Positions 7,914 through 22,192 are shown, numbered from the stretch's first letter. The stretch is 59,898 nucleotides of DNA from Actinomycetes bacterium (GCA_021827485.1 JAKAVM010000058.1:1-59898); one strand, 5' to 3'. Notes: a model not told the origin generated them from the sequence alone. A program made the numbers and translations.

Positions 7914-10766
7914 TTGAGTTCACCATTGATATCAACAGACGACATGCCAGACAGGTGGGCCGTGGTTGACCCCTCCGCCTACCTTGGGCCGGAAAGCTGG
8001 GCCCGCCTGGAGATTGATCGGCAACTCGTTGCCTGTGGGTGGGTGGTCCAGAACCATCGGGAAATGGCCCTCGGCGCCGGGCTCGGGGTGGCGGTTCGGG
8101 AGTTCCCCATGGCCAAGGGCCACGGCACCTCCGACTACGTGCTTTTCGTCAACCGGAGAGCAGTCGGGGTCATTGAGGCGAAAAAAGTAGGCGAGACACT
8201 CACCGAGGTCGAGTGGCAGTCGGCCAAGTACGCCACGGGGCCGGCCGAGGACGTGCAGGCTCCGATGTCACCGCTCCCTTTTTGCTACGAATCGACGGGG
8301 GCTGAAACGAGGTTCACCAACCTGCTCGACCCCGAACCGGCGAGCCGGGAGGTCTTCAGCTTCCACCGACCTGAGACCTTTGCCAGCTGGTTGCGGGTCT
8401 GGGAGGACCTGAGCCTTGGCGGGCCCGACCGGGCGACGCTGCGCCAGTGCCTCCAGTCGATGCCGCCGCTGGATCACAGCAACCTGTGGGACGTTCAGTA
8501 CCAGGCGGTCGCCAACCTGGAGGAATCGCTGCGCTACAACCGGCCCCGTGCTCTCATTCAGATGGCGACCGGTTCGGGAAAGACCCACACCGCGGTTAGC
8601 GCCACCTACCGGCTCATCAAGCACGCTAAGGCGTCCCGGGTGCTCTTCCTGGTGGACCGGGCACACCTCGGCAAGCAGGCTCTGGCCGAATTCCAGTCCT
8701 TTGAGACTCCTGACGACCATCGCAAGTTCACGGAACTCTATGCCGCTGAGCGGTTAACCTCCAACACAATCGGCGATTCCTCAAAAGTAGTCATCACTAC
8801 AATTCAGCGCCTTTTCTCGATTCTAAAAGGCGAACCGGATCTTGACGAGGAGGTCGATGAGCGCACAGGGTTCGACGTCGAGCCAGCGGCCCCGGTCGAG
8901 GTATCCTATAACGATACAGTACCCCCGGAGTTTTTCGACGTAATCATCGTCGACGAGTGTCACCGCTCGATCTATGGGGTGTGGCGCCAAGTGCTCGACT
9001 ACTTCGACGCGTTCATCATCGGGCTGACCGCGACGCCGGGCAAGCAGACCATCGGCTTTTTCAACCAGAACTTTGTCATGGAGTACTCCCACGAGGCGGC
9101 TGTCGCCGATGGCATCAACGTGGACTTCGATGTCTACCGCATTCGTACCGAGATCACTGAGCATGGCTCAAAGGTGGATGCCGGACTCGTCACCAAGTTC
9201 CGCGCCCGTCAAACTCGTAAAACCCGTTACGAGAAAATCGACCAAGACATCGCCTACGCAGGTGCTGACCTCGACCGCTGGGTTGTCTCCAAGGACCAGA
9301 TCCGTACAATCATCCAGACATTCCGGGACAACCTCTTCACCGAGATCTTCCCCGGTAGGTCCTGGGTGCCCAAGACCCTCATCTTTGCAAAAGACGACTC
9401 CCACGCCGACGACATTGTCCAGATCGTGCGCGAAGAGTTCGGCTGGGGCAACGATCGCGCCGCCAAGATCACCTACAAGTCGCGCTCTGCAGGAGACAAT
9501 CCCGACCAGCTTCTCAAAGACTTCCAAACATCCCCTACGCTTCGGATCGCGGTAACCGTCGACATGATCGCCACCGGCACCGACGTGAAGCCTCTTGAAT
9601 GTGTCATGTTCATGCGAATGGTGCACTCCCGCAACTACTTCGAGCAGATGAAGGGGCGGGGAGTGCGGGTCATCGAGCCCAACGATTTGAAAGTCGTGAC
9701 CGGCGACGCCGAGGTGAAGGACCGCTTCGTCATCGTGGACGCCATTGGAGTCACCGAGGCGGACTTGCACGATACGGTGCCCCTGGAGCGAAAGCCTAGC
9801 GTATCCTTCGACAAGATGCTCCTTCGCCTGGTGCACGGGCGCTTCGACGAGGACACCGTTTCCTCGGTTGCCTCCCGCATCGCCCGGCTCGATCGTTCCA
9901 TCACGAGCGACGATCGTGCCGATCTGGAAAAGGTGGCGGGAGTCTCCCTGATCGAACTCTCCCACCTGCTACTCGACTCCCTGGACCCGGATCGACACGT
10001 GGAGGCCGCCCGGCAAGCAACGGGTCTGGCCGATCCGAGCGAGGCAGACGTGGCGGCAGCGGCCCAGTCGATCATCGAACTGGCAGTGCGCCCCATCGCC
10101 GACAACCCGCAACTGCGCCAGAAGCTGGTCGACGTACGGAAGTCCTACGAGCAGTTGATCGACGAGTTCTCCGCCGATCGAGTGATCTCCGCCGAGCTAT
10201 CGCGCGACGCCACGGACCGGGCGCGCTCCATCGTGACGTCCTGGCGGGCCTATATCGACGAACACAAGGACGAGATCACCGCGCTCCAGGTGCTCTATTC
10301 CCAGCCCCACAGACGCAGGCTCTCCTTCCCCGATATCAAGGAACTGGCGCACGCGATCAAACGGCCGCCGTATCGCTGGACGCCGGAGACTCTGTGGAAC
10401 GCTTATGAAACACTCGACAAGTCCAAGGTGCGCGGGTCGGGAAGCCGAGTGCTCACCGACATTGTGTCGCTGGTGCGTTTCGCACTCTCTCAGGACTCCA
10501 CGCTGGTCCCCTATACGGATCGGGTCGAAGAGAAATTCGCTGGCTGGCTTGCTCAACAGGCACAGGCCGGTCGTGTGTTCACACCGGACCAGGAGCGGTG
10601 GTTGCGGTGGATCGCCGAAGCCATCGCATCGTCGCTGACTGTCGATACCGACGCCTTCGAGTACGAGCCCTTCGTCCAGGACGGCGGAATCGGGCGGGCG
10701 GTGGAACTCTTCGGTGACGACTTGGGGCCGTTGCTGGACGAGCTGAACCGGGAGCTGGCGGCGTGA
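7914..10766 (+). CDS. hsdR: Type I restriction endonuclease subunit R (EcoEI/EcoAI-like)
   Basis: SDYVLF...VIEAKK nuclease motif, ATGSGKT, DECHRS, TATP, QMKGRG, and a C-terminal EcoEI_R_C-like region. Confidence 0.95.
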   Translation: MSSPLISTDDMPDRWAVVDPSAYLGPESWARLEIDRQLVACGWVVQNHREMALGAGLGVAVREFPMAKGHGTSDYVLFVNRRAVGVIEAKKVGETLTEVEWQSAKYATGPAEDVQAPMSPLPFCYESTGAETRFTNLLDPEPASREVFSFHRPETFASWLRVWEDLSLGGPDRATLRQCLQSMPPLDHSNLWDVQYQAVANLEESLRYNRPRALIQMATGSGKTHTAVSATYRLIKHAKASRVLFLVDRAHLGKQALAEFQSFETPDDHRKFTELYAAERLTSNTIGDSSKVVITTIQRLFSILKGEPDLDEEVDERTGFDVEPAAPVEVSYNDTVPPEFFDVIIVDECHRSIYGVWRQVLDYFDAFIIGLTATPGKQTIGFFNQNFVMEYSHEAAVADGINVDFDVYRIRTEITEHGSKVDAGLVTKFRARQTRKTRYEKIDQDIAYAGADLDRWVVSKDQIRTIIQTFRDNLFTEIFPGRSWVPKTLIFAKDDSHADDIVQIVREEFGWGNDRAAKITYKSRSAGDNPDQLLKDFQTSPTLRIAVTVDMIATGTDVKPLECVMFMRMVHSRNYFEQMKGRGVRVIEPNDLKVVTGDAEVKDRFVIVDAIGVTEADLHDTVPLERKPSVSFDKMLLRLVHGRFDEDTVSSVASRIARLDRSITSDDRADLEKVAGVSLIELSHLLLDSLDPDRHVEAARQATGLADPSEADVAAAAQSIIELAVRPIADNPQLRQKLVDVRKSYEQLIDEFSADRVISAELSRDATDRARSIVTSWRAYIDEHKDEITALQVLYSQPHRRRLSFPDIKELAHAIKRPPYRWTPETLWNAYETLDKSKVRGSGSRVLTDIVSLVRFALSQDSTLVPYTDRVEEKFAGWLAQQAQAGRVFTPDQERWLRWIAEAIASSLTVDTDAFEYEPFVQDGGIGRAVELFGDDLGPLLDELNRELAA

Positions 10767-12034
10767 GCGAGCTGCCGACGGGGTGGGTGGAGACGACAAT
10801 TGGTTCGGTCATTTCGCCTGCTGGGGAGAGGTCTACCCCGGGTGCTGATGATGCCCGACATTACATCGGGCTTGAACACATCGAGGCTCACACCACTCGA
10901 ATTCTCGGCTCGCAATTAGCGAGCCAGATTCGAAGCTCCGCTGTCAGCTTCCAAAAAGATAGCGTGCTTTACGGCAGAATGCGGCCATACCTAAACAAGG
11001 TGTGCCTCGCCCCGTTTGATGGGATCGGATCACCGGAGCTTATCGTTCTTCCACCCTCATTGGGGATCCGGCCGCGATTTCTCTTGTATCGGATAAGCCA
11101 CACCGATTTCGTCAGCTTTGCAATGAAGCACATCGAAGGTGACCGACCGCGGGTCAAGTGGAACCAACTTGCAGATTTTCCGATCGATTTGCCGCCGGTC
11201 GCCGAGCAGGACCGCATCGTCGCCGCCATCGAGGAGCAGTTCTCCCGGCTCGATGCTGCCGAGGCGTCGTTGCAAAGAGCGAAGCGGAATGTGGAGAGGA
11301 TGCGGAGGGCGGTGCTGGCGGAAGCCTTTCCGAGAGGAGACGAGCTGCCGACGGGGTGGGTGGAGACGACAATTGGTTCGGTCATTTCGCCTGCTGGGGA
11401 GAGGTCTACCCCGGGTGCTGATGATGCCCGACATTACATCGGGCTTGAACACATCGAGGCTCACACCACTCGAATTCTCGGCTCGCAATTAGCGAGCCAG
11501 ATTCGAAGCTCCGCTGTCAGCTTCCAAAAAGATAGCGTGCTTTACGGCAGAATGCGGCCATACCTAAACAAGGTGTGCCTCGCCCCGTTTGATGGGATCG
11601 GATCACCGGAGCTTATCGTTCTTCCACCCTCATTGGGGATCCGGCCGCGATTTCTCTTGTATCGGATAAGCCACACCGATTTCGTCAGCTTTGCAATGAA
11701 GCACATCGAAGGTGACCGACCGCGGGTCAAGTGGAACCAACTTGCAGATTTTCCGATCGATTTGCCGCCGGTCGCCGAGCAGGACCGCATCGTCGCCGCC
11801 ATCGAGGAGCAGTTCTCCATTCTCGATTCGCTCTTTGCCGCGATAGACCACTCGCTCGTCCGCTCCGCCCACCTACGCCGGGCGATCCTGGAGCAGGCGT
11901 TCACCGGCAGGCTCGTTCCCCAAAACCCGAGCGACGAGCCTGCCTCGGCCCTGCTTGAGAGAATAGAGCAGGTCAGGCGAGACAATCTGGCCGCATCGAA
12001 GACCAAGAAGGGTAAGGTGGCGACGCCACGATGA
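10763..12034 (+). CDS. hsdS: Type I RM specificity subunit with two identical TRDs
   Basis: LPTGW and LPPVAEQDRIV conserved regions, ILEQAFTGRLVPQNPSDEPASALL tail, GTGA overlap with hsdR. Confidence 0.95.
   Translation: MSELPTGWVETTIGSVISPAGERSTPGADDARHYIGLEHIEAHTTRILGSQLASQIRSSAVSFQKDSVLYGRMRPYLNKVCLAPFDGIGSPELIVLPPSLGIRPRFLLYRISHTDFVSFAMKHIEGDRPRVKWNQLADFPIDLPPVAEQDRIVAAIEEQFSRLDAAEASLQRAKRNVERMRRAVLAEAFPRGDELPTGWVETTIGSVISPAGERSTPGADDARHYIGLEHIEAHTTRILGSQLASQIRSSAVSFQKDSVLYGRMRPYLNKVCLAPFDGIGSPELIVLPPSLGIRPRFLLYRISHTDFVSFAMKHIEGDRPRVKWNQLADFPIDLPPVAEQDRIVAAIEEQFSILDSLFAAIDHSLVRSAHLRRAILEQAFTGRLVPQNPSDEPASALLERIEQVRRDNLAASKTKKGKVATPR
10768..11818 (+). repeat. ~478-bp apparently perfect direct repeat (10768-11245 / 11341-11818)
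   Basis: Same nucleotide and protein sequence for both TRDs, offset 573 bp. Confidence 0.95.
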
Positions 12035-12399
12035 CACTTCCTCACACACTTTACGAAGTCGTCGACGGTAGGACGCTCTATGCCGGTCGCACCGTGGCCC
12101 AATGGCTGCCCGATGTCATACAGCGAATTGTCGATCGCTTCTCACCCTTGAAAATTGTACTTTTTGGCTCGCTAGCCACAGGGACGGACACCGGCGAAAG
12201 CGACATTGATCTACTAATAGTTCTGAGGAAACTGAACGGTCGCCATCACGACGTGGCAGTTTCTATTCTGCGCGAACTGCGCGACATACCGGTTCCAATT
12301 GATCTGTTGGTCACTGACGAGGAGGAGATACAGCGGCGTGGCGATTTGCCCGGAATTCTCCGAGTCGCCCTTCGTGAAGGTTCAGTCGTCTATGGTTGA
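12031..12399 (+). CDS. Minimal nucleotidyltransferase (MNT family)
   Basis: LFGSLATG...SDIDLL and PIDLLV motifs; ATGA overlap with hsdS. Confidence 0.9.
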   Translation: MTLPHTLYEVVDGRTLYAGRTVAQWLPDVIQRIVDRFSPLKIVLFGSLATGTDTGESDIDLLIVLRKLNGRHHDVAVSILRELRDIPVPIDLLVTDEEEIQRRGDLPGILRVALREGSVVYG

Positions 12400-12511
12400 G
12401 AAAAGTGGAACCTTCGAAACAAAGCATAATCTTCTTCAACTCTCTCAATTGGTTACCCGTTTAGAGATCGTGGCACGATATATTGAACTTTCTAATACAG
12501 GAGGGCATTAA
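12392..12511 (+). pseudogene. Possible truncated HEPN remnant (39 aa)
   Basis: ATG overlaps the MNT end. MVEKSGTFETKHNLLQL resembles the HEPN (K/R)THdL..L motif. Confidence 0.3.
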
Positions 12512-12514
12512 GTT

Positions 12515-12901
12515 ATGACTACCCAACTAGAAACCAATCTTAACAATCGCGCATGGATATTCCAAGCCAATCCCCTACATTTCGACATCGATGACGCATT
12601 GAAGTCGCTGGATCGCATCTGGTGGCGAGTTCCTCAGCATACATTCCATATCCATGTTGGTGATATTGTCGTGATATGGAGAAGTGGAAAGGCTGCTGGA
12701 ATTGTCGGCATGGATCGAGTTGTTTCTGAACTACGGCTCAAGGCAATGGAGCCTTCCGAAATGGAGCTTGTCCGATCTGAGGCTAGCTATCGAGTCCGCA
12801 GCCAAGCTTGGCACCAAGGAAGTGAACAGGTCGTGATCCAGACGGAATCTGAAGAAAGTGGCACTTCGATGCAGGCAGCACCGGGTATTTGGCATGCGTG
12901 A
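12515..12901 (+). CDS. EVE (PUA-like) domain protein, probably truncated
   Basis: AWIFQANP..FDI, W.V......I..GD.V.IWRSG...GIVG..RV pattern; GGAGGG RBS. Confidence 0.7.
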   Translation: MTTQLETNLNNRAWIFQANPLHFDIDDALKSLDRIWWRVPQHTFHIHVGDIVVIWRSGKAAGIVGMDRVVSELRLKAMEPSEMELVRSEASYRVRSQAWHQGSEQVVIQTESEESGTSMQAAPGIWHA

Positions 12902-13817
12902 ATGGTCCCCCCATACCGAGGAGAAGATCTCGATCCTCGCCGACTACCTCGGTGAATTCACCGTGGCTGCCCGGACCGCGGTCAACCGGATTTACATGGA
13001 CCTGTTCGCCGGGGAAACCGTCAACATCTTGAAGACGACGGGTGAGCAGTTCCCCGGTTCAGCGGAGATTGCACGGGCTGTCGAGCCCCCTTTCACCTCG
13101 CTCATCCTCTTTGAGAAGGACCACCAACGCGCTACAGATCTCCGCACTCTTGCCCGTGACCACGGTGATAGCCGGGTCACCGTCGTCGAGGGCGACTGCA
13201 ATGCGAATATGCTTGCCGCTCTTCGGGCCGTTCCGACCCAGGCTCCGGTATTCGCCTTTGTCGATCCCGATGGCATGGAGGTCCAGTTCCGAACCATAGA
13301 GCTTCTCGCCGAGCACAAGCGAAACTCCGGTAAGCCCAAGATCGAGATGTGGGTTCTCCTTCCGACGAGCGGGCTGGTACGCATGCTCGGGGGGAATCGA
13401 AGCGAGGCCGAAAGGCAGGGTCATCCTGACAAGGTGGCCCGCCTCTACGGAGCATGGGGACCCTGGCAAGACGTGTGGGAGGCCCGCCTGGCGGGGACGC
13501 TGTCTCCTGGAGATGCGCGCCTGGCATACCTCCTCCTATACATGGACCGGCTTGCTGGCCTCGAATACACCTACCTGCTTGCGCGCCCGATCAAGAACTC
13601 CCGTGGCGAGCTGTACGTCATGGTCTTCGCTACCGATCATCCTGCCGGGCAGAGCATCATGCAATGGGCACAAGAGAAGGATCGGGTGGTGCGTCGTACT
13701 GCTACCCCACCTCTTTTTCAATACCCGGAGGCCCGTCCCGCTTACGAGGACATTCATACGGAGTGGCGCGAGCAATTCCCCGTTTCCCTGTCCGAATGGG
13801 TGGAGTACCAGTGGTGA
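12858..13817 (+). CDS. tcmP: Three-Cys-motif partner protein (Rossmann methyltransferase-like); likely start at internal MREW (12894)
   Basis: W..HT..K...L..YL, YMDLFAG, GDCN and FAFVDP.G motifs; adjacent to DUF5131. Confidence 0.85.
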   Translation: MALRCRQHRVFGMREWSPHTEEKISILADYLGEFTVAARTAVNRIYMDLFAGETVNILKTTGEQFPGSAEIARAVEPPFTSLILFEKDHQRATDLRTLARDHGDSRVTVVEGDCNANMLAALRAVPTQAPVFAFVDPDGMEVQFRTIELLAEHKRNSGKPKIEMWVLLPTSGLVRMLGGNRSEAERQGHPDKVARLYGAWGPWQDVWEARLAGTLSPGDARLAYLLLYMDRLAGLEYTYLLARPIKNSRGELYVMVFATDHPAGQSIMQWAQEKDRVVRRTATPPLFQYPEARPAYEDIHTEWREQFPVSLSEWVEYQW

Positions 13818-13847
13818 TCGAGCGACACACGACGAGAGGGTCCCTTC

Positions 13848-14615
13848 ATGGCTAAGAGCTCGATCGAGTGGACCGAGGCCACCTGGAATCCGACGACCGG
13901 CTGCGACCGCACGTCGCCGGGCTGCGACCGCTGCTACGCGCTGACGCTCGCTAAGCGACTCAAGGCGATGGGTCACGAGAAGTACCAGCGAGACGGCGAC
14001 CCTGCCACCAGCGGACCCGGCTTCGGCATTGCGCTACATCCCGAGACCCTGGGTATTCCCCAATCATGGGGCGCCCCGCGGGTCATCTTCGTCAATTCGA
14101 TGAGCGACCTTTTCCATCCAGAGGTTCCGCTGGCCTTCATTCGCGATGTGTTCGACGTGATGGAGGCGACCCCTCGGCACACATACCAGGTGCTCACCAA
14201 GCGTTCGAAGCGCCTCGCCCAGCTCGCCGATCAGCTCTCCTGGCCGGCAAACGTGTGGATGGGAGTGAGCGTCGAGAACCAGCGCTACGCCTTCCGGGCC
14301 GATCATCTTCGGGAGGTCCCGGCCGCGGTGCGATTCCTCTCGGTGGAACCGATGCTCGGTCCGGTGGTTCCCGATCTCTCCGGAATCGACTGGATGATTG
14401 TCGGTGGCGAGAGCGGTCCGGGAGCCAGGCCTGTGGAACCCGAGTGGGTGCGGAATCTCCGCGACCTGTGCGTCGGCGCGAACGTACCCTTTTTTTTCAA
14501 ACAATGGGGCGGAAGAACACCCAAGGCCGGTGGTAGGACTCTGGACGGGCGGACCTGGGACGAGTACCCGGAGCCGGAGGCCACGCAACGCCTGACCTGC
14601 GTTGGGGAAGGCTGA
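13848..14615 (+). CDS. DUF5131 / phage Gp37Gp68 family protein (radical-SAM-like three-Cys motif)
   Basis: IEWTEATWNPTTGCDRTSPGCDRCYA (Cx6CxxC), FVNSMSDLFH, LTKR, GGESG, FFKQWGG. Confidence 0.93.
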   Translation: MAKSSIEWTEATWNPTTGCDRTSPGCDRCYALTLAKRLKAMGHEKYQRDGDPATSGPGFGIALHPETLGIPQSWGAPRVIFVNSMSDLFHPEVPLAFIRDVFDVMEATPRHTYQVLTKRSKRLAQLADQLSWPANVWMGVSVENQRYAFRADHLREVPAAVRFLSVEPMLGPVVPDLSGIDWMIVGGESGPGARPVEPEWVRNLRDLCVGANVPFFFKQWGGRTPKAGGRTLDGRTWDEYPEPEATQRLTCVGEG

Positions 14616-14616
14616 G

Positions 14617-16089
14617 ATGACCGATCCCAAGGCGCTCGTCGCCAAGCTGTGGAACTACTGCAACATCTTGCGGGACGACGGTCTCTCCTACGGCGACTAC
14701 TTGGAGCAGCTCACCTACCTGCTCTTCCTGAAGATGGCCGACGAACAGACCCGTCCACCCTTCAGCCGGGAAGCGGTCGTCCCCTACGGCCTCGACTGGC
14801 AGTCTCTCAAGGACAGAAGCGGAGACGAACTCGAAGCGCACTACATCCGCATCCTAAACGAGTTGGGCAGGCAACCGGGGATGCTCGGTGTCATCTTCCG
14901 CAAAGCGCAGAACCGCATCCAGGACCCGGCGAAGCTCCGGCGCCTCGTCGTCGAGCTCATCGACCAGGAGTCGTGGATGACGCTGAAAGCCGACGTCAAG
15001 GGCGACGCGTACGAGGGGCTCCTACAGAAGAACGCCGAGGATACCAAGTCCGGTGCTGGCCAGTACTTCACTCCCCGCCCGCTCATCCACGCAATCGTCG
15101 AGGTGATGGCTCCGGTGGCGGGAATGAGGATCTGCGATCCGGCGTGCGGGACCGGTGGGTTCCTATTGGCCGCCCACGACTACATCGCCCAGCACAACCC
15201 CTACCTCAATCCCGATGAACGCAAGGAGCTGCGCTTCGAGGCGCTCCACGGGTGGGAGATCGTTGATAACACCGCCCGCCTGTGCGCGATGAACCTCCTT
15301 CTACACGGGATCGCGGCCGCCGATGCCGAGAGCCCCATCAGAGTAGATGACGCCATGAAGTCCGACCCTGGTGCACGCTACGACATGGTGCTAACTAATC
15401 CACCTTTTGGGAAAAAGTCCTCGGTAACCTTGGTTGGTGCCGACGGCGAATCCCGCAAGCAAGATCTGACCATCCTTCGGGATGACTTTTGGGCGACGAC
15501 ATCCAATAAGCAGCTCAACTTCCTTCAGCACGTACGGACGCTCACCAAAGTCGGTGGATCGGTAGCAATTGTCGTTCCCGATAATGTCCTTTTCGAGGGA
15601 GGCGCAGGTGAGACGATCCGGCGCAAGCTCCTCCATGAGTGCGACGTTCATACGCTGCTGCGGTTGCCGACCGGCGTGTTCTACGCCCAGGGGGTGAAGG
15701 CGAATGTCCTGTTCTTTGACCGTAAGGCTGCCTCGGAAACGCCGTGGACGAAGGAGTTGTGGATCTACGATCTGCGAACCAATCAGCACTTCACCCTGAA
15801 GGAGGATCCGTTGGGCTACGAGGACCTGGGGGACTTCATCAAGTGCTTTTCCGCTGGTGACCGGCCGAAGCGGGTCGAGTCCGATCGGTTCCACTGCTTT
15901 TCTATTGATGAACTCCTGGCACGAGACAAAGCAAGTCTGGATATCTTCTGGTTGAGGGACGAGTCACTGGAGGATGCCGACAACCTGCCAGCACCAGAGG
16001 TGATCGCCGCGGAAATCGTGGAGGACCTGGAGGCGGCGTTGGCGGAGTTTGCAGAAATCGCGGCGAACCTCGGGGCGCGGGAAGCGTGA
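14617..16089 (+). CDS. hsdM: Type I RM N6-adenine methyltransferase subunit M
   Basis: KLWNYCNILRDDG, GQYFTPR, DPACGTGGFL, NPPF. ATG at 14617 (track start 14602). Confidence 0.95.
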   Translation: MTDPKALVAKLWNYCNILRDDGLSYGDYLEQLTYLLFLKMADEQTRPPFSREAVVPYGLDWQSLKDRSGDELEAHYIRILNELGRQPGMLGVIFRKAQNRIQDPAKLRRLVVELIDQESWMTLKADVKGDAYEGLLQKNAEDTKSGAGQYFTPRPLIHAIVEVMAPVAGMRICDPACGTGGFLLAAHDYIAQHNPYLNPDERKELRFEALHGWEIVDNTARLCAMNLLLHGIAAADAESPIRVDDAMKSDPGARYDMVLTNPPFGKKSSVTLVGADGESRKQDLTILRDDFWATTSNKQLNFLQHVRTLTKVGGSVAIVVPDNVLFEGGAGETIRRKLLHECDVHTLLRLPTGVFYAQGVKANVLFFDRKAASETPWTKELWIYDLRTNQHFTLKEDPLGYEDLGDFIKCFSAGDRPKRVESDRFHCFSIDELLARDKASLDIFWLRDESLEDADNLPAPEVIAAEIVEDLEAALAEFAEIAANLGAREA

Positions 16090-16220: not shown

Positions 16221-17558
16221 ATGTTAAGCAAAGACCCAGCCACGTTGAGCCCTCGTGAGTTGTTTGACGGACGTTACAGGGTCGAGCGGCTACTGGGGAC
16301 AGGAGATCGCAAGGTAACCTACCTGGCAATCGACGAAAAACATGATCGTCAAGTAGCGCTGAGTGTTGTACGGCCAAATGCGCTTCCGCAAGATCCGGAT
16401 GGCACAGAGCGGGAAGCAAAGGTGCTTGGGCGGATCGGCAGCCACGACAACATCGTTTCGCTGTACGAATCCGAGATCGAGTCAATTCCCCAGTACATCG
16501 TGTTTGAGTATCTTGCAGGGGGGACCCTCGCCACCTTCCTGCGCCAGTCGTGTCCGCTCCCAGCGGAGACAATTTACCGCCTTGCACGCCAGGTATGTCG
16601 TGGATTGGCCCACCTACACGATAAGGGTGTTATTCACCGTGACCTTTCGCCTGCAAATATCTGGCTAGACGAGCGCGGGACTGCCCATCTGGGCGATTTC
16701 GATTCTGCCATCAGGCTCGGGGATAGCGACCAGCGGTGCCCCATAACCACGAATACCTTCGCCGCCCCAGAGGAGAAGAGCGGTGAAGCCTTAGATGTTC
16801 GCTCCGACTTGTTTTCCCTCGGCGGGCTCCTCTATGTACTGGCTATGGGCGGTGACCGACTTGGAGATGTCCGAGGGCTTCGGAGCCAGCGCACCGATCT
16901 ACCGTCATCTTTCTCTGACCTCGTTGAAGCGCTCGTGGCCTGGTCACCAACGGACCGCCCAGCCGATGCTAATGCAGTCTTGACGTGGCTTGAGCAGATT
17001 CGTAACGCTTCCAATCTCGGAAGCCTTCTCAAACAAGAGGAAAGCAATCACCTCGAGTTCAAAGCATCGCTCCTTCACCTGCACAGTCCTTTGCCAGAGG
17101 CGCTGAAGAAGAGGGTGGATAATGATACCTTGACGGTCGAGCAGGCACAAGGCGAAGCAAGGGGTGGAGTGAAGCGTGCCGCGGCCAAGACGATCTGCGC
17201 TTTCCTAAACAGCGAAGGTGGCACGCTCGTCATTGGAGTTACCGACGCTCGAGACGTTGTCGGCATCGAACCGGATTTTGCTTACTTGGGCGCGCGTCAG
17301 GATGCCGACGGGTGGCTCAACGAGTTCCAAATGTTAGTTAAAAGCACGTTGGGACCGGACACTTGGAGCTGCATCCGCGTTTCGCTTACACAGCATGAAG
17401 GTGCCACTGTCGCGCTCGTAGATTGTCCTCGGCGAGCCATCGACACATGGTTGACAATGGAGAAAAAGCAAGAGTTCTTTATCCGAGCTGCCAATGGAAC
17501 CGAAGCGTTAGAGGGACCGCGCCTCGTCAAGTATGTACGCGAGCACTGGATGTCATGA
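16221..17558 (+). CDS. Ser/Thr protein kinase fused to a Schlafen/AlbA_2 domain
   Basis: Kinase motifs HRDLSPAN, GDFD, APEE, SDLFSLG. C-terminal EESNHLEFKASL and ICAFLNSEGGTLVIGVTD. Confidence 0.88.
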   Translation: MLSKDPATLSPRELFDGRYRVERLLGTGDRKVTYLAIDEKHDRQVALSVVRPNALPQDPDGTEREAKVLGRIGSHDNIVSLYESEIESIPQYIVFEYLAGGTLATFLRQSCPLPAETIYRLARQVCRGLAHLHDKGVIHRDLSPANIWLDERGTAHLGDFDSAIRLGDSDQRCPITTNTFAAPEEKSGEALDVRSDLFSLGGLLYVLAMGGDRLGDVRGLRSQRTDLPSSFSDLVEALVAWSPTDRPADANAVLTWLEQIRNASNLGSLLKQEESNHLEFKASLLHLHSPLPEALKKRVDNDTLTVEQAQGEARGGVKRAAAKTICAFLNSEGGTLVIGVTDARDVVGIEPDFAYLGARQDADGWLNEFQMLVKSTLGPDTWSCIRVSLTQHEGATVALVDCPRRAIDTWLTMEKKQEFFIRAANGTEALEGPRLVKYVREHWMS

Positions 17559-17694: not shown

Positions 17695-18849
17695 ATGGCC
17701 GTATCTACGAGGGTTGAAGTAAAACCGGAGTTGCTGGCTTGGGCACGCGAGCGCTCTGGCCTCGACCCTAGCTACCTAGAACATCGTTTCCCGATGTTGA
17801 ACGACTGGAAACAAGGAAACCGTCAACCTACTCTCAAGCAATTGGAGGACTTTGCTCGCGCTACCCACACCCCTATCGGTTTCATGTTTCTATCAGAGCC
17901 ACCCGAAGAGCGCTTGCCGATTCCCGACTACCGCACGGTCGGTGATTTAGGTATTATCCGCCCCAGCCCAAACCTTTTGGACACTATCTTCCAATGCCAA
18001 CAACGTCAGGAGTGGTACAAAGAGTTCGCACAAGTTACGCGCGAAGATGCTGTCAGCCTAATTGGATCGCTAACGATGTCGATGCGCGTCAATGAAGCAG
18101 CTGACATAATAAGAGAGGCGCTTGGGTTCTCCATTAGTGAACGTGGTTCAACATGGACTGAAGCACTTCGAATCCTCATCGATCAAGCCGAGAAACTCGG
18201 GGTGCTAGTCATGGTTAGCGGAGTGGTAGGGAGTAATAACTATCGCAAGCTGGATCCTCGGGAGTTTCGTGGCTTTGCCCTCGTTGATCAACTTGCCCCA
18301 CTAGTGTTCATAAACGGTGCGGACACGAAGGCGGCTCAGATCTTTACCTTAACGCATGAACTTGTCCATCTCTTCCTGGGTGAAACAGCTCTTGATGACG
18401 TCGACCTTGCCTCAGCTCCCACGATCCCCACTGAACGCTGGTGCAATCAAGTAGCGGCCGAACTTCTCGTCCCGAAGGCGTTATTGGACACCGATTTCGA
18501 CGGAGAAACCCAACCCACAGAAGAACTCGAGCGCCTTGCAAGGAAATTCAAGGTGAGCACCCTCGTCCTTCTTCGTCGTGTCCATGACATCGGTCGCCTG
18601 GATTGGGATAGCTACAAGCAGGCTTATCGAGATGAGCTAGCGCGGATCCTGCAGATATTGGGCGAGCGACCATCAGGACGTGGAAACTTCTTCAATACTC
18701 AGCCTGCCCGGGTGAGTAAGCGCTTCGCCCGAGCCGTCATCACGAGTACTTTAGAGGGTCAGACCCTTCATCGCGATGCGTTTCAAATGTTGGGCTTCAA
18801 GAAACTTTCTACTTTCGAGGAGTTAGTTAGTCGGCTTGGTGCTGGCTAA
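17695..18849 (+). CDS. XRE-HTH + ImmA/IrrE (Peptidase_M78) metallopeptidase
   Basis: N-terminal LAWARERSG...PTLKQL HTH, FTLTHELVH (HExxH), ERWCNQVAAELL. Confidence 0.92.
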   Translation: MAVSTRVEVKPELLAWARERSGLDPSYLEHRFPMLNDWKQGNRQPTLKQLEDFARATHTPIGFMFLSEPPEERLPIPDYRTVGDLGIIRPSPNLLDTIFQCQQRQEWYKEFAQVTREDAVSLIGSLTMSMRVNEAADIIREALGFSISERGSTWTEALRILIDQAEKLGVLVMVSGVVGSNNYRKLDPREFRGFALVDQLAPLVFINGADTKAAQIFTLTHELVHLFLGETALDDVDLASAPTIPTERWCNQVAAELLVPKALLDTDFDGETQPTEELERLARKFKVSTLVLLRRVHDIGRLDWDSYKQAYRDELARILQILGERPSGRGNFFNTQPARVSKRFARAVITSTLEGQTLHRDAFQMLGFKKLSTFEELVSRLGAG

Positions 18850-19337
18850 TGGCGTATCTACTTGACACGAACGTCTTTATCGACGCTAAAAATCGCTATT
18901 ACGGATTCGATTTCTGTCCAGCTTTTTGGGAATGGATCGATCAAGCTCACGTCGACGGAATAGTGTTTAGTATCGACAAAGTAGCGAGTGAGCTAAATAT
19001 CATAGATGACGAACTCTCCACCTGGGCCAACCAACACACTAATGAGTTTTTTCTAGAGGCTGATGCCGCATTGATTCCGAGCCTTCGGATCACCAGCAAC
19101 TGGGCAAACGGTGCAGGCTATGAGCCTGCGGCAGTCGCTACTTTCCTCCAAGACGTCGATTATTACCTTGTAGCGCGTGCTCACGCACTTGGTTATGTAG
19201 TGGTCACCCACGAAGTAGTCTCGACCTCCAAGAAGAAGATAAAGATTCCCGACGCTTGCCTTGGCATCGGCGTGAGATATCTAACACCGTTTGAAATGCT
19301 TCGGATCGAAAGAGCTAGATTTGTCATCTCATCGTGA
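18849..19337 (+). CDS. DUF4411 family PIN-like protein
   Basis: YLLDTNVFI, YY.FD.CP.FW.W, VVTHE, KIKIPDAC; TAATG overlap with the upstream gene. Confidence 0.9.
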   Translation: MAYLLDTNVFIDAKNRYYGFDFCPAFWEWIDQAHVDGIVFSIDKVASELNIIDDELSTWANQHTNEFFLEADAALIPSLRITSNWANGAGYEPAAVATFLQDVDYYLVARAHALGYVVVTHEVVSTSKKKIKIPDACLGIGVRYLTPFEMLRIERARFVISS

Positions 19338-22192
19338 GATCCTCCGACGGATTACGGAATAGTGATGTCGCACCCTTCTGTTACCCTTCAAACATGAAAC
19401 ACTTTTTGAAGTTCGTTATGCGGCTGGTACTTATTGTGGCTTTAGGCATGCTCTTTCTCGTCCAAACCTTAGCCTCGCCTGTCTTTGGCGGCTCATATGG
19501 ACCAAAATCTTTGGTGGGGCAATCTGACCAATTAGCTAGAAATCACCTTGTAAGAATGGAACCCGCTCTTGCGCCCGATGCAAGGGTGGTGGGCGTACCG
19601 CCCATGATTAGGGTGGACATCACTTTGAAACTGTCTCATCCGGTTCAAGCAGCCCGCTTTGCCTACGAGGTATCGGATCCTAAATCATCACTTTTCCGTC
19701 ACTTTTTGGCCAAAGGACAGTTCAACCAAGATTTTGGACCAAGCCCAAGCGAAGTTCATCGTGTGCAAGGTGAGTTGGCTTCACTTGGACTTTCCACGTC
19801 AGTGCAGCCTGTCGGATATGTATTAGAAGCTTACGCTCCTACCAAGACAGTCGACGATGCTTTCCATACCAGGGTTGACAATTTTATGATGCCTGGTAAC
19901 AGAATTGCTCATTCAAATATATCGCCTGTGTACTTACCTTCTAACATATCGCCAGACGTTATGAATATAACGGGGCTCTCCGATGTATCCCAAGCGGTGC
20001 CGCAGGGTAATCTAAGTCCCTCCTTGAAGCAACCATATTCCAAGACTGGCAAGACTCGCTTAGCTACCGGAGGACCTCAACCTTGCCAAAGTGCAGTAAG
20101 CACGGGAGCACTAACTGCTGACCAGTTAGCTAGTGCTTATAGCTTCAGTGGAGCTTATCAAGCTGGCTATGAGGGCCAGGGAGAGACTATTGCTCTAGTT
20201 GAGTTAGGTTCTGGCTGGAATCCTAACGATATATACACTTATGAATCATGTTACGGGATCAACAATGACATCCACTACGTGGATGTAGACGGCGCGGACT
20301 ATGAAACCATGAACAGTGGAAGCTTTGAACCTACTCTGGACATAGAAGATGCAGTAAGTCTGGCCCCTCAGGCTAAGATCATTACCTATGAAACGCCAGA
20401 TCTTTCTATTCTATCGGAACAGGATGCCTTATCGGCTATTGCCTCAAATGATTCAAGTCAAATAGTAAGTATTAGCTATGGAGGCTGTGAAGATCCATAT
20501 GGCGACCAGTCCATCAACACAATCCTCGAACAGTTAGCATCTCAGGGAAATAGTATCTTTGCCGCCTCCGGCGACACCGGTGCAAACTGTTCCGACATAA
20601 CTAGTAACGGGACTACTTATAGTCTTGGGGTATCATTCCCTGCAAGTAGCCCCTACGTTACCGGCGTAGGTGGAACGCAAATGAGTTCAGTGGGACCACC
20701 ACCTGTCGAATCTACTTGGAATGATGGAACGGGCTCCAACGGGGTTATTGCCGCATCAGGAGGAGGCTGCTCTAAGGAATTTTACCAACCACAGTTTCAA
20801 GCTAACTATTTTGGCGATACCTATCCCAATAGCACATACTGTAGGGAAGTTCCCGATGTATCGGCACTTGCGGGTTCGCCCGGATATTCCGTGTACTACT
20901 CAGGGTCTTCAACTAATGGCACTATCGGTTGGCAGATCGGGGGAGGCACAAGCGCCGCGAGTCCCCTATGGGCGGCACTTCTTGCGGTTAGCAACTCAGA
21001 TTGCAATCGTGATTTTGGCCCTATCAATCCGTCAATTTACAAATACTCTTCGCAATACCTAAACGACGTAACCTCGGGAAACAATGGGTATTATTACGCC
21101 GGAGTTGGATATGACATGACGACAGGGCTTGGATCTCCCAATGGAAGTGCATTTATGTGCACTGTAGGAAGTCCAACGGCTACAACCACAACAACTTCGA
21201 CAACTTTGTCACCAACTACTACAACAACGACTACTTCAACTACGTCGCCGATCATCAACATACCAACGACTACTTCAACAACATTGTCACCAACTACTAC
21301 AACGGTGGCACCTACAACTACTCTCCCAGCGACAACAACCGCTGCCCCTCCACAAAATCCAGTCCCAAAGAACAACCAGCCTGGGTACTGGTTATTGGGC
21401 TCTGATGGAAGTGTCTATAGTTTTGGTTCTGCGAACTTTTATGGCTCAGCATCTGCATTGGGTCCGGCTAGCGCTATGGCTGCAACCGCCGATGGAGGGG
21501 GCTATTGGCTTGCATCTTCTAACGGTGCTGTCCAAGCTTTTGGGGATGCAATCGACTATCCTCTTAGCGCATTTCCAACAACTTCAGTTGTTGCAATTGC
21601 TTCCACCCGTGACGGCAACGGATTCTGGTTGGCAACTTCAGGAGGTCAAGTCATTGAAGCTGGAGATGCGCAAGCCTACGGTTCTCCTGCCCTACAAGGT
21701 ATTTCTCTCACCGCTCCCATTATCGCAATGGCTGTTACTAAGAGTGGAGATGGCTATTGGCTGGTAGCTGCTGATGGTGGGATATTTAGCTTTGGCAATG
21801 CAAGTTTTTATGGTTCATCTGGTCAAATCAATCCTGCATTTGCCGCCGGTGGGTCTAACTCCTTTGTGCCCAATAAGCCGATAATCGGAATTGTCGCTAC
21901 CGTTGATGGAGGCGGCTACTGGATGGTTGGAACTGATGGTGGGGTCTTTGCTTTTGGCGATGCAGGATTTGTTGGATCATCTGGCCAAATCAATCCGGCA
22001 CTTCCCGCTGGTGGGTCTAACTCCTTTGTCCCCAATAAACCAATAATCGGAATTGTTGCCAGCGCTGATGGAGGCGGCTACTGGATGGTTGGGGCTGATG
22101 GTGGAGTCTTTGCTTTTGGCGATGCAGGATTTGTTGGATCCCTTGGGAACAACCCACCGGCCAATCCAATTGTTGCAATCGTAGGCGACTAA
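19334..22192 (+). CDS. Secreted S53 (sedolisin/kumamolisin) peptidase with Thr-rich linker and C-terminal GYW-repeat domain (start probably ~19394)
   Basis: Pro-domain, EPTLDIED, ASGDTG, VPDVSA, GGTSAASP, YDMTTGLGSP; GYWLVAADGGIFSFG repeats. Confidence 0.9.
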   Translation: MRSSDGLRNSDVAPFCYPSNMKHFLKFVMRLVLIVALGMLFLVQTLASPVFGGSYGPKSLVGQSDQLARNHLVRMEPALAPDARVVGVPPMIRVDITLKLSHPVQAARFAYEVSDPKSSLFRHFLAKGQFNQDFGPSPSEVHRVQGELASLGLSTSVQPVGYVLEAYAPTKTVDDAFHTRVDNFMMPGNRIAHSNISPVYLPSNISPDVMNITGLSDVSQAVPQGNLSPSLKQPYSKTGKTRLATGGPQPCQSAVSTGALTADQLASAYSFSGAYQAGYEGQGETIALVELGSGWNPNDIYTYESCYGINNDIHYVDVDGADYETMNSGSFEPTLDIEDAVSLAPQAKIITYETPDLSILSEQDALSAIASNDSSQIVSISYGGCEDPYGDQSINTILEQLASQGNSIFAASGDTGANCSDITSNGTTYSLGVSFPASSPYVTGVGGTQMSSVGPPPVESTWNDGTGSNGVIAASGGGCSKEFYQPQFQANYFGDTYPNSTYCREVPDVSALAGSPGYSVYYSGSSTNGTIGWQIGGGTSAASPLWAALLAVSNSDCNRDFGPINPSIYKYSSQYLNDVTSGNNGYYYAGVGYDMTTGLGSPNGSAFMCTVGSPTATTTTTSTTLSPTTTTTTTSTTSPIINIPTTTSTTLSPTTTTVAPTTTLPATTTAAPPQNPVPKNNQPGYWLLGSDGSVYSFGSANFYGSASALGPASAMAATADGGGYWLASSNGAVQAFGDAIDYPLSAFPTTSVVAIASTRDGNGFWLATSGGQVIEAGDAQAYGSPALQGISLTAPIIAMAVTKSGDGYWLVAADGGIFSFGNASFYGSSGQINPAFAAGGSNSFVPNKPIIGIVATVDGGGYWMVGTDGGVFAFGDAGFVGSSGQINPALPAGGSNSFVPNKPIIGIVASADGGGYWMVGADGGVFAFGDAGFVGSLGNNPPANPIVAIVGD
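21812..22140 (+). repeat. 162-bp internal tandem duplication (54-aa repeat)
   Basis: GSSGQINPA..AGGSNSFVPNKPIIGIVA..DGGGYWMVG.DGGVFAFGDAGFV occurs twice. Confidence 0.85.

Follow-up and report, generated by a model that had tools for sequence, protein, structure and literature searches.

The window analyzed here is a stretch of 59,898 nucleotides (nt) from an Actinomycetes bacterium (GCA_021827485.1, JAKAVM010000058.1). It carries a type I restriction–modification (RM) operon in which two further genes lie between hsdS and hsdM. One encodes TcmP, a three-Cys-motif partner protein of 307 amino acids (aa), and the other a DUF5131 (Gp37/Gp68) protein. This pair is the subject of the present analysis.

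A TcmP–DUF5131 gene pair between hsdS and hsdM

HsdR, HsdS and HsdM are all present and intact and are encoded on one strand, as judged by Pfam, NCBIfam and PADLOC models. An original prediction, made from the sequence alone, had placed intact tcmP and DUF5131 genes inside the operon, between hsdS and hsdM, and family models, coordinates and a contig spanning the junctions all agree with this placement. From hsdR to hsdM, gene ends overlap or nearly touch, the exception being a 115-nt AT-rich gap (GC 0.38) 5′ of an open reading frame (ORF) with an EVE domain. The 3′ end of the EVE ORF overlaps the start of tcmP by 8 nt, and 30 nt separate the tcmP stop from the DUF5131 start. The tcmP frame is open from a GTG at 12858 to 13817, with the start at ATG 12894 taken from the 307-aa database form. 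The spacing of 1 nt between the DUF5131 stop and the hsdM ATG, also predicted, was found as described: the stop TGA occupies 14613–14615, a single G follows at 14616, and the ATG begins at 14617, with GGGGAAGG directly 5′ of it. A consensus scan for promoters and terminators gave no excess over shuffled sequence. This result, together with the tight spacing and the co-orientation with hsdR, hsdS and hsdM, implies that tcmP and DUF5131 must be transcribed with the restriction genes. No RNA sequencing run containing the stretch was listed.

We also asked whether the arrangement could reflect misassembly. A Logan contig of 3151 nt, from a run (X1) that may be the source sample, is identical to 11789–14939. 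Because the contig spans this region without a difference, the hsdS-to-hsdM junctions are not an assembly join. Partial matches in runs X9–X11 are low-depth copies of the same sequence rather than cargo-free variants, as judged from contigs only. Part of the DUF5131 gene (14089–14750) showed several-fold higher depth in metagenome runs. The extra depth comes from contigs of other organisms, 90–95% alike, and fits the unusually high conservation of DUF5131. Both families are represented by one copy each in the genome of the window.

GC content is 0.58–0.64 in hsdR, hsdS, tcmP, DUF5131 and hsdM versus 0.47–0.48 in both flanks, where the genes are ordinary (a low-molecular-weight phosphatase, a fructosamine-type kinase, an MFS transporter and a sedolisin-like protein). 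By composition, then, the type I operon itself is foreign, a putatively acquired GC-rich island.

Predicted folds of TcmP and DUF5131

TcmP scored above the NCBIfam TIGR04474 cut-off of 53 bits, over profile positions 1–258 of 263, and matched PADLOC model PDC-M41A with an E-value of 1.4e-22 (scores in Table 1). No Pfam family matched at E ≤0.01, the RsmJ/RlmJ family model (PF04378) included. The sequence contains the motifs MDLFAGE and FAFVDPDG. In an alignment of 41 sequences, invariant or nearly invariant columns were D36, F38-A39-G40, E74, D101, D124, P125 and G127. D36xFAG40, E74 and D101 fall at S-adenosylmethionine (SAM)-binding positions of class I methyltransferases. Motif IV corresponds to D124-P125-x-G127, which reads DPDG (DQQG/A in one subclade); D124 is invariant, and no aromatic residue follows. 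In amino-methyltransferases, motif IV is (D/N/S)PP(Y/F/W), with the aromatic residue last.

The predicted model of TcmP (pLDDT 92.9) has as its best solved neighbor RlmJ, the 23S rRNA A2030 N6-methyltransferase (Foldseek E 8.3e-7; Z 16.4, rmsd 3.1, 214 residues aligned). Trm1 comes next at Z 14.8, followed by generic methyltransferases at ∼13. In an Atlas search, the nearest named families were RsmJ- and RsmD-type clusters, at scores of 0.81–0.82 that provide leads only. TcmP thus resembles RlmJ in fold, in the SAM motif I–III positions and in the D-P of motif IV, yet identity is only 13–16%, the Pfam match is lacking, and DPDG is without the aromatic residue. Fused TcmP forms of 539–2000 aa were not found, which is weak evidence. 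From the predicted fold and the motifs, we infer that TcmP has a Rossmann fold, binds SAM and is a relative of the N6-adenine methyltransferase RlmJ that lacks the DPPY-type aromatic residue.

DUF5131 matched Pfam PF07505 over the whole profile (1–243 of 243; cut-off 28.9 bits) and PADLOC PDC-M41B with an E-value of 4.2e-106. Its three-Cys motif is GCDRTSPGCDRCYA, a Cx6CxxC arrangement at C19/C26/C29. Across 28 sequences, C26 and C29 are invariant and C19 occurs in at least 90%; a GGESG motif is conserved as well. The canonical three-Cys site of radical-SAM enzymes, spore photoproduct lyase included, is CX3CX2C. The spacing in DUF5131 is a variant of this canonical site, and the [4Fe-4S] cluster is putative. 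No spore photoproduct lyase family model matched: Pfam returned PF07505 and a weak GP88 match, and NCBIfam only a sub-threshold match to rSAM_mob_pairA. For DUF5131, as for TcmP, profile searches of PDB sequences gave no solved relative.

The DUF5131 model is of moderate quality (mean pLDDT 77) and contains a partial TIM-barrel core resembling solved radical-SAM enzymes. In a search of 48,161 chains, spore photoproduct lyase, a radical-SAM DNA repair enzyme, came out on top (Z 13.2, rmsd 2.9, 194 residues). The next matches, at Z 10–10.8, were LAM (lysine 2,3-aminomutase), viperin, SuiB, SkfB and LIAS, and the top rows were mostly radical-SAM enzymes. In the RadicalSAM.org paper, DUF5131 appears as a superfamily subgroup in Megacluster 5-2, adjoining spore photoproduct lyase in 5-3. 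DUF5131 and spore photoproduct lyase share Megacluster 5, and the lyase is the best structural match of the DUF5131 model, but they differ in sequence (13% identity), in Cys spacing, and in the methyltransferase-fold partner that DUF5131 needs or keeps. Folds and motifs together suggest that DUF5131 is a [4Fe-4S]/SAM radical enzyme of a spore-photoproduct-lyase-like branch. Prediction of a complex of TcmP, DUF5131, one 4Fe-4S cluster and two SAM molecules gave scores of 0.26 and 0.00 against a mark of 0.32, from which we drew no verdict.

These results agree with the prediction of a methyltransferase-fold protein next to a radical-SAM-type three-Cys enzyme, to which the family models, the RlmJ and spore photoproduct lyase matches and the RadicalSAM.org listing all point. 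The motifs that had been read from the sequence (DLFAG, VDP.G and Cx6CxxC) are present and lie on conserved alignment columns.

The folds also raise the idea that the pair modifies rRNA or tRNA, in the manner of RlmJ, Trm1, RlmN/Cfr or MiaB. TcmP has its closest structural matches among RNA methyltransferases, the Atlas clusters are of RsmJ/RsmD type, and MiaB, RimO and Cfr are among the matches of DUF5131. Yet DUF5131 has its top match in an enzyme that acts on DNA. The patchy spread of the pair (22 of 201 genomes in one genus) and its mobile, phage-borne, SOS-type and recA-linked contexts, described below, also speak against a role in RNA modification, which we consider very unlikely.

The pair is widespread and mostly found outside type I operons

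A locus search with the single TcmP sequence gave no hits, and an alignment was required. The related loci described here are the best 80 of 181 confirmed genomic TcmP matches found with an alignment profile. The TcmP profile also matched 6,644 representatives at 50% identity (E ≤0.001). DUF5131 adjoins TcmP in 78 of the 80 loci; the exceptions are L059, where the contig ends, and L049, which has no DUF5131. The genes are ordered DUF5131 then TcmP in 54 loci, TcmP then DUF5131 in 13, and convergently in 11. With both models above cut-off and the genes adjacent, the window carries the TcmP/three-Cys-motif pair (TIGR04474 plus PF07505, ‘phage Gp37/Gp68’), albeit in a minority order (13/78). In a sample of Mycobacterium, TcmP occurs in 22 of 201 genomes, with DUF5131 adjacent in nearly all fetched loci and mostly convergent.

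The two proteins differ in conservation. DUF5131 stays 60–70% identical where TcmP falls to 30–40%, and the Spearman coefficient is 0.115 (2,850 locus pairs). Pairwise identities were used in place of a DUF5131 tree, which was poorly resolved (13 of 73 branches starred).

To survey the surroundings, we took three ORFs on each side of the pair, giving 402 ORFs in 362 clusters. Pfam was run on the 271 representatives of at least 125 aa, and 91 shorter ones were dropped. Neighbors include housekeeping families (SecA, aminoacyl-tRNA synthetases, RuvB and GlnA), defense-type families (GmrSD, Mrr, type III and IIG-like RM, HEPN-DUF499, AbiGi, Abi_C and ThsB-type TIR) and mobile-element families (transposases, integrases, relaxase and TraG).

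SOS-type operators and recA-linked copies in other lineages

We scanned 109 loci, totaling 1.447 Mb, for the LexA-type core GAAC-N4-GTTC. Of 58 sites, 27 lie within 195 upstream windows, where 2.2 would be expected. Promoter-proximal regions were then counted for the first gene of the pair only, or for both genes where these are convergent. The exact core is found 32–94 nt 5′ of the pair in 23 of 128 such regions (23 of 107 loci), compared with 1.06 expected from the same loci. Most of the boxed regions carry a longer palindrome, CGAAC...GTTCG. An ORF-based control with cruder starts gave boxes for 12 of 131 pair genes versus 17 of 1,139 other genes (odds ratio 6.7, p 1e-5), and several of those 17 share the pair's own intergenic region. 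A RecA-NDp-like pattern has six matches in the 1.447 Mb, and all six lie 5′ of DUF5131 in Mycobacterium loci.

A further connection runs through Mycobacterium tuberculosis. The record of phage phiE125 notes gp37 as resembling M. tuberculosis Rv2734, and a published Rv2735c primer matches one Mycobacterium genome exactly (locus L116). Positions 296–2976 of this locus encode the C-terminus of RecA, RecX (317.6 bits), a 330-aa TcmP (204 bits) and, in convergent orientation, a DUF5131 of 284 aa, whose ORF shares 116 nt at its 3′ end with that of TcmP. The length of Rv2735c given in PMC9846648 equals the 330 aa of this TcmP. Two further papers describe Rv2735c as co-transcribed with recA–recX (PMC3062782) and place Rv2734, Rv2735c, recX and recA in one cluster differentially expressed under mitomycin C (PMC5057432). 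In the first 28 Mycobacterium loci, no RecA was found within 1.5 kb of TcmP; L116 is the only locus where it was.

Linkage of many DUF5131 pairs to DNA-damage control adds to the likeness to spore photoproduct lyase. By analogy with these contexts in other lineages, the pair in the window may act on DNA in connection with DNA damage.

Phage-borne copies and a predicted defense system

Among 50,697 phage records, 180 contain DUF5131 and 7 contain TcmP, so that most DUF5131 records are without TcmP. In Gordonia phage Fairfaxidum the pair is convergent (gp42/gp43), and gp43 matches TIGR04474 at 109 bits. Phage records and the neighbors of the genomic loci alike uphold the mobile and phage contexts named in the original prediction.

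We examined the neighborhoods of DUF5131 in 14 phage records, running Pfam on 46 neighboring proteins; with samples this small and annotation this poor, the results are leads only. A DNA methyltransferase lies near DUF5131 in 5 of the 14, of the N6_N4 type in prophiGD53-3 and Squirty and of the C5 type in Bakery, RcapNL and Dfl-JY45. This provides a weak lead towards the idea of a DNA mark. ASCH, of the PUA-like class, is annotated near DUF5131 in three records (L085, L123 and L125). The occurrence of PUA-like EVE and ASCH domains near the pair could hint at a modified base, or could be coincidence. DUF4326 is encoded a few genes from DUF5131 in six records (L118, L119, L123, L124, L125 and L128); PMC9503650 proposes it as a rhodanese-phosphatase clade acting on ADP-ribose derivatives.

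The pair had been put forward as a candidate new module. On this point the prediction does not hold, as the adjacent genes in the window match both component models, A and B, of PADLOC PDC-M41. In their preprint, Payne, Hughes, Fineran and Jackson (bioRxiv 10.1101/2024.01.29.577857) derived 145 PDC candidates from genes found inside BREX, DISARM or type I RM systems. There, the PDC systems are said to have entered PADLOC as predictions, and seven other systems were assayed; PDC-M41 is not named in the main text. PDC-M41 (sister PDC-M30) has the same components and the same type I embedding as seen here, with no difference in kind, and its anti-phage role is predicted. The window copy has, in addition, an MntA-like gene and the EVE ORF at the same junction. 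More generally, the arrangement resembles other cargo of type I operons, foreign genes co-transcribed between RM genes and recognized through guilt-by-embedding, for which Payne et al. name PrrC as an example. The cargo here differs in being an enzyme pair, and one that other lineages place under SOS-type control.

The pair could be an autonomous anti-phage system, a second line beside RM, in which the radical-SAM enzyme would either produce a nucleotide that is toxic or terminates chains or else damage phage DNA, with TcmP as sensor or targeting subunit. Several observations fit. The PDC-M41A/B models that match were built from defense-embedded genes. Restriction, Abi or other defense-type domains occur within three ORFs of the pair in at least about 28 of the 80 loci (the 13 with a type I system plus L019, L021, L022, L023, L026, L042, L046, L047, L053, L057, L058, L062, L066, L076 and L077). 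In Fairfaxidum the pair belongs to the lysogeny region, with integrase/metalloprotease on one side and the immunity repressor on the other. Such regions are the usual seat of prophage-defense genes. The S. meliloti pair adjoins Hna, and viperin is among the structural neighbors of DUF5131.

Other observations argue against defense. DUF5131, at 60–70% identity where TcmP is at 30–40%, is unusually conserved for a defense effector. Many copies of the pair lie between housekeeping genes, and DUF5131 occurs in phage records mostly without TcmP. SOS-type operators stand 5′ of the pair in a number of loci, and to our knowledge such operators are uncommon for defense systems. Finally, the PDC systems are predictions in the preprint main text, which reports no phage assay for them. 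We regard a defense role as rather unlikely.

Association with type I systems

A type I system adjoins the pair in 13 of the 80 loci. In seven (L003, L004, L005, L007, L008, L009 and L082), the pair is embedded between hsdS and hsdM, with L005 and L008 ending at contig ends; in the other six (L035, L040, L043, L054, L061 and L075), it is appended after the type I system. By rough inference from gene numbers rather than from a measured control, this adjacency is far above that of a random gene, and it agrees with the published embedding signal. A count of the hsdS–tcmP–DUF5131–hsdM order across genomes had been proposed with the original prediction. Among the 80 loci, this order recurs in seven and type I adjacency in 13; the remaining 67 loci are without an adjacent type I system.

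In a quick IQ-TREE tree of TcmP (81 rows), the window groups with L003, L004, L005, L007, L008 and L009 in one starred clade (95) of eight, with the RM-free locus L006 nested inside. Hosts in this clade are labelled Actinomycetota, Acidobacteriota and Armatimonadota. L082 was embedded separately, and appended forms occur at scattered positions on the tree. This pattern points to one embedding followed by transfer of the whole unit, plus several independent captures at the ends of RM operons. In this one clade, the hsdR–hsdS–TcmP–DUF5131–hsdM unit is inherited as a block across several phyla.

The original prediction had further proposed that the pair elaborates or backs up the N6-methyladenine (m6A) mark of HsdM/S. 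In such a scenario, the pair would write or elaborate a DNA mark together with HsdM/S, for instance a further modified m6A or an additional protective mark at those sites. Translation of the pair is coupled to that of hsdM, the gene order from hsdS to hsdM is kept while the proteins diverge to 55–72% identity, and appended forms 3′ of hsdM arose several times. DNA methyltransferases near DUF5131 in phages (two N6_N4, three C5) and PUA-like readers nearby, EVE in the window and L003 and ASCH in phages, are also in line with a DNA mark. Against this stand the 67 loci without an adjacent type I system. The embedded form is essentially one clade, and within that clade L006 lacks RM genes and has instead an SOS-type box, 32 nt 5′ of the pair. 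In other loci the pair occurs by itself, flanked by housekeeping genes or preceded by SOS-type operators, a damage-inducible control that is ill-suited to a maintenance mark. The phage methyltransferases are of different classes and so give no consistent tie to m6A, and the DPDG of TcmP is without the aromatic residue of amino-methyltransferase motif IV. A functional tie to the HsdM/S mark thus finds no backing in how the pair is distributed, and we consider it improbable.

The hsdS–tcmP junction differs in composition from the rest of the operon, with GC of 0.53 in the MntA-like gene, 0.38 in the gap and 0.50 in the EVE ORF. In L004 and L009, hsdS directly adjoins tcmP, without the MntA-like gene or EVE. 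We considered these two genes as parts of the module and rejected them on both grounds, their differing GC and their absence from the junction in L004 and L009. They are instead later additions at a cargo-accepting junction.

The pair might itself be a neutral passenger in this host, without a current function and kept only since hsdM lies downstream. The foreign composition of the island and the uptake of other cargo of different GC at the junction would suit a passenger. Yet neither ORF is broken or lacks a conserved residue, and relatives keep the arrangement over long divergence. Of the readings considered, a passenger seems to us the most improbable.

Other genes of the island

The remaining genes of the island are listed in Table 1 with those of the operon.

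Table 1. Features of the type I operon and island in the window, with family matches
Feature	Position	Strand	Assignment and matches
hsdR	7914..10766	+	Type I restriction subunit, 950 aa, EcoEI/EcoAI-like; ResIII 132 bits, EcoEI_R_C 127 bits, HSDR_N, PADLOC REase_I; GC 0.61
hsdS	10763..12034	+	Specificity subunit; Methylase_S, PADLOC Specificity_I 294.6 bits
MntA-like nucleotidyltransferase	12031..12399	+	NTP_transf_2 40.7 bits; MntA model 30.2 bits, under cut-off; PDC-S09; GC 0.53
EVE (PUA-like) domain ORF, 128 aa	12515..12901	+	PF01878 34.1 bits, profile positions 2–108 of 145 only; GC 0.50
TcmP, three-Cys-motif partner protein, 307 aa	12894..13817	+	TIGR04474 152.6 bits, PDC-M41A 79 bits; predicted RlmJ-like class I methyltransferase fold
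DUF5131 / Gp37-Gp68 protein, 255 aa	13848..14615	+	PF07505 333.4 bits, PDC-M41B 351.7 bits, PDC-M30B 334.1 bits, phrog_2045; radical-SAM superfamily subgroup
hsdM, type I N6-adenine methyltransferase	14617..16089	+	N6_Mtase 222 bits, HsdM_N, PADLOC MTase_I 638.8 bits
Ser/Thr kinase with C-terminal Schlafen/AlbA_2 domain	16221..17558	+	Pkinase 123 bits, SLFN_AlbA_2 51.9 bits; PADLOC mad6 159.9 bits, PD-T4-6 models
ImmA/IrrE-type metallopeptidase	17695..18849	+	Peptidase_M78 51 bits; right edge of island
DUF4411	18849..19337	+	173 bits; right edge of island

Within hsdS there is a perfect direct repeat of 478 bp (10768–11245 = 11341–11818), such that the two target-recognition halves are identical in DNA. 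Identical halves imply that the recognition site is symmetric and that duplication or conversion happened recently. No HepT partner adjoins the MntA-like gene; L007 has a gene of HepT type between DUF5131 and hsdM. An EVE-type ORF in L003 (11065–11388) is 50% identical to the EVE of the window.

Downstream of hsdM, the kinase–Schlafen/AlbA_2 gene matches mad6 and PD-T4-6 at levels well below full-length equivalence. It is probably a separate defense gene of the island and not part of the pair. L034 (4683–6331) and L058 (17218–18853) contain homologous pairs of ImmA/IrrE-type peptidase and DUF4411 genes, at 34–52% identity, and there too the TcmP pair is less than 10 kb away. Just outside the island, 19334–22192 encodes a 952-aa secreted-looking protein with a pro-kumamolisin activation domain, a Thr-rich linker and repeated C-terminal modules.

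Discussion

On balance, we favor the view that TcmP and DUF5131 together are a mobile, self-contained module of two genes, of the PDC-M41 type, which acts on DNA and is linked to DNA damage, and that it rides as cargo in this type I operon rather than serving as an accessory of HsdM and HsdS. After it we rank defense, then a DNA mark tied to HsdM/S, then RNA modification.

As to mechanism, our proposal is tentative and somewhat short of an even chance. DUF5131 would use radical chemistry to act on a DNA base that is damaged or modified, either in a repair-like reversal or in a rewriting, and TcmP would find and present the target or supply a second SAM. The pair would do so independently of HsdM and HsdS. 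In the window, SOS-type control would have been exchanged for constitutive co-expression with the restriction system.

A number of points weigh against a damage-linked module of this kind. Neither the LexA-type core nor the RecA-NDp-like pattern was taken from a published motif definition. The exact box is absent from 84 of 107 loci, and it does not occur in the island of the window; GAAC-N4-GTTC is found in the window only at 828 and 6057, which is chance level. Transcription reading through from recA may by itself account for the induction of Rv2735c. On the structural side, the DUF5131 model is weak at the Cys loop (pLDDT <50 at residues 22–28), and Foldseek gave no match to it at E ≤0.001. 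Fold likeness gives no substrate: RlmJ and Trm1 have RNA as their target, and among the next-best matches of DUF5131, at Z 10.8, is viperin, an antiviral enzyme that modifies nucleotides. The lysogeny-region location of the Fairfaxidum pair belongs here too. So does the repeated, independent association with type I systems (the embedded clade, L082 and the scattered appended forms), which argues that embedding is not purely accidental. Full-text literature searches returned no biochemical or genetic study of the pair, and for TcmP and Gp37/Gp68 only gene lists; in this respect the original prediction, which knew of no established biochemical function, agrees with the literature.

A bolder extension of the damage-linked module, which we hold to be doubtful, is that TcmP–DUF5131 represents a second radical-SAM family for DNA repair or base editing, after spore photoproduct lyase. 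Such a family, induced by damage in many Actinomycetota through LexA boxes, RecA-NDp-type promoters and the recA–recX operon, would be carried around by phages and islands. Restriction operons would have captured it for reversing or rewriting a lesion or methylation-linked adduct made by RM or phage attack, and EVE and ASCH domains would read the same base.

The pair as such is known, catalogued and uncharacterized. The window copy adds little alone, since its type of locus is the source type of the PADLOC candidate. The pair is, however, large in number and widespread, with 6,644 TcmP representatives, 180 phage records and about one in ten of the sampled genomes in one genus. Comparison across loci sharpens the question through the likeness to a DNA-repair lyase and through the damage operators and recA placement, and published transcript data cover the mycobacterial counterparts under other names. 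Hence repair, defense and modification should be readily distinguishable by experiment.

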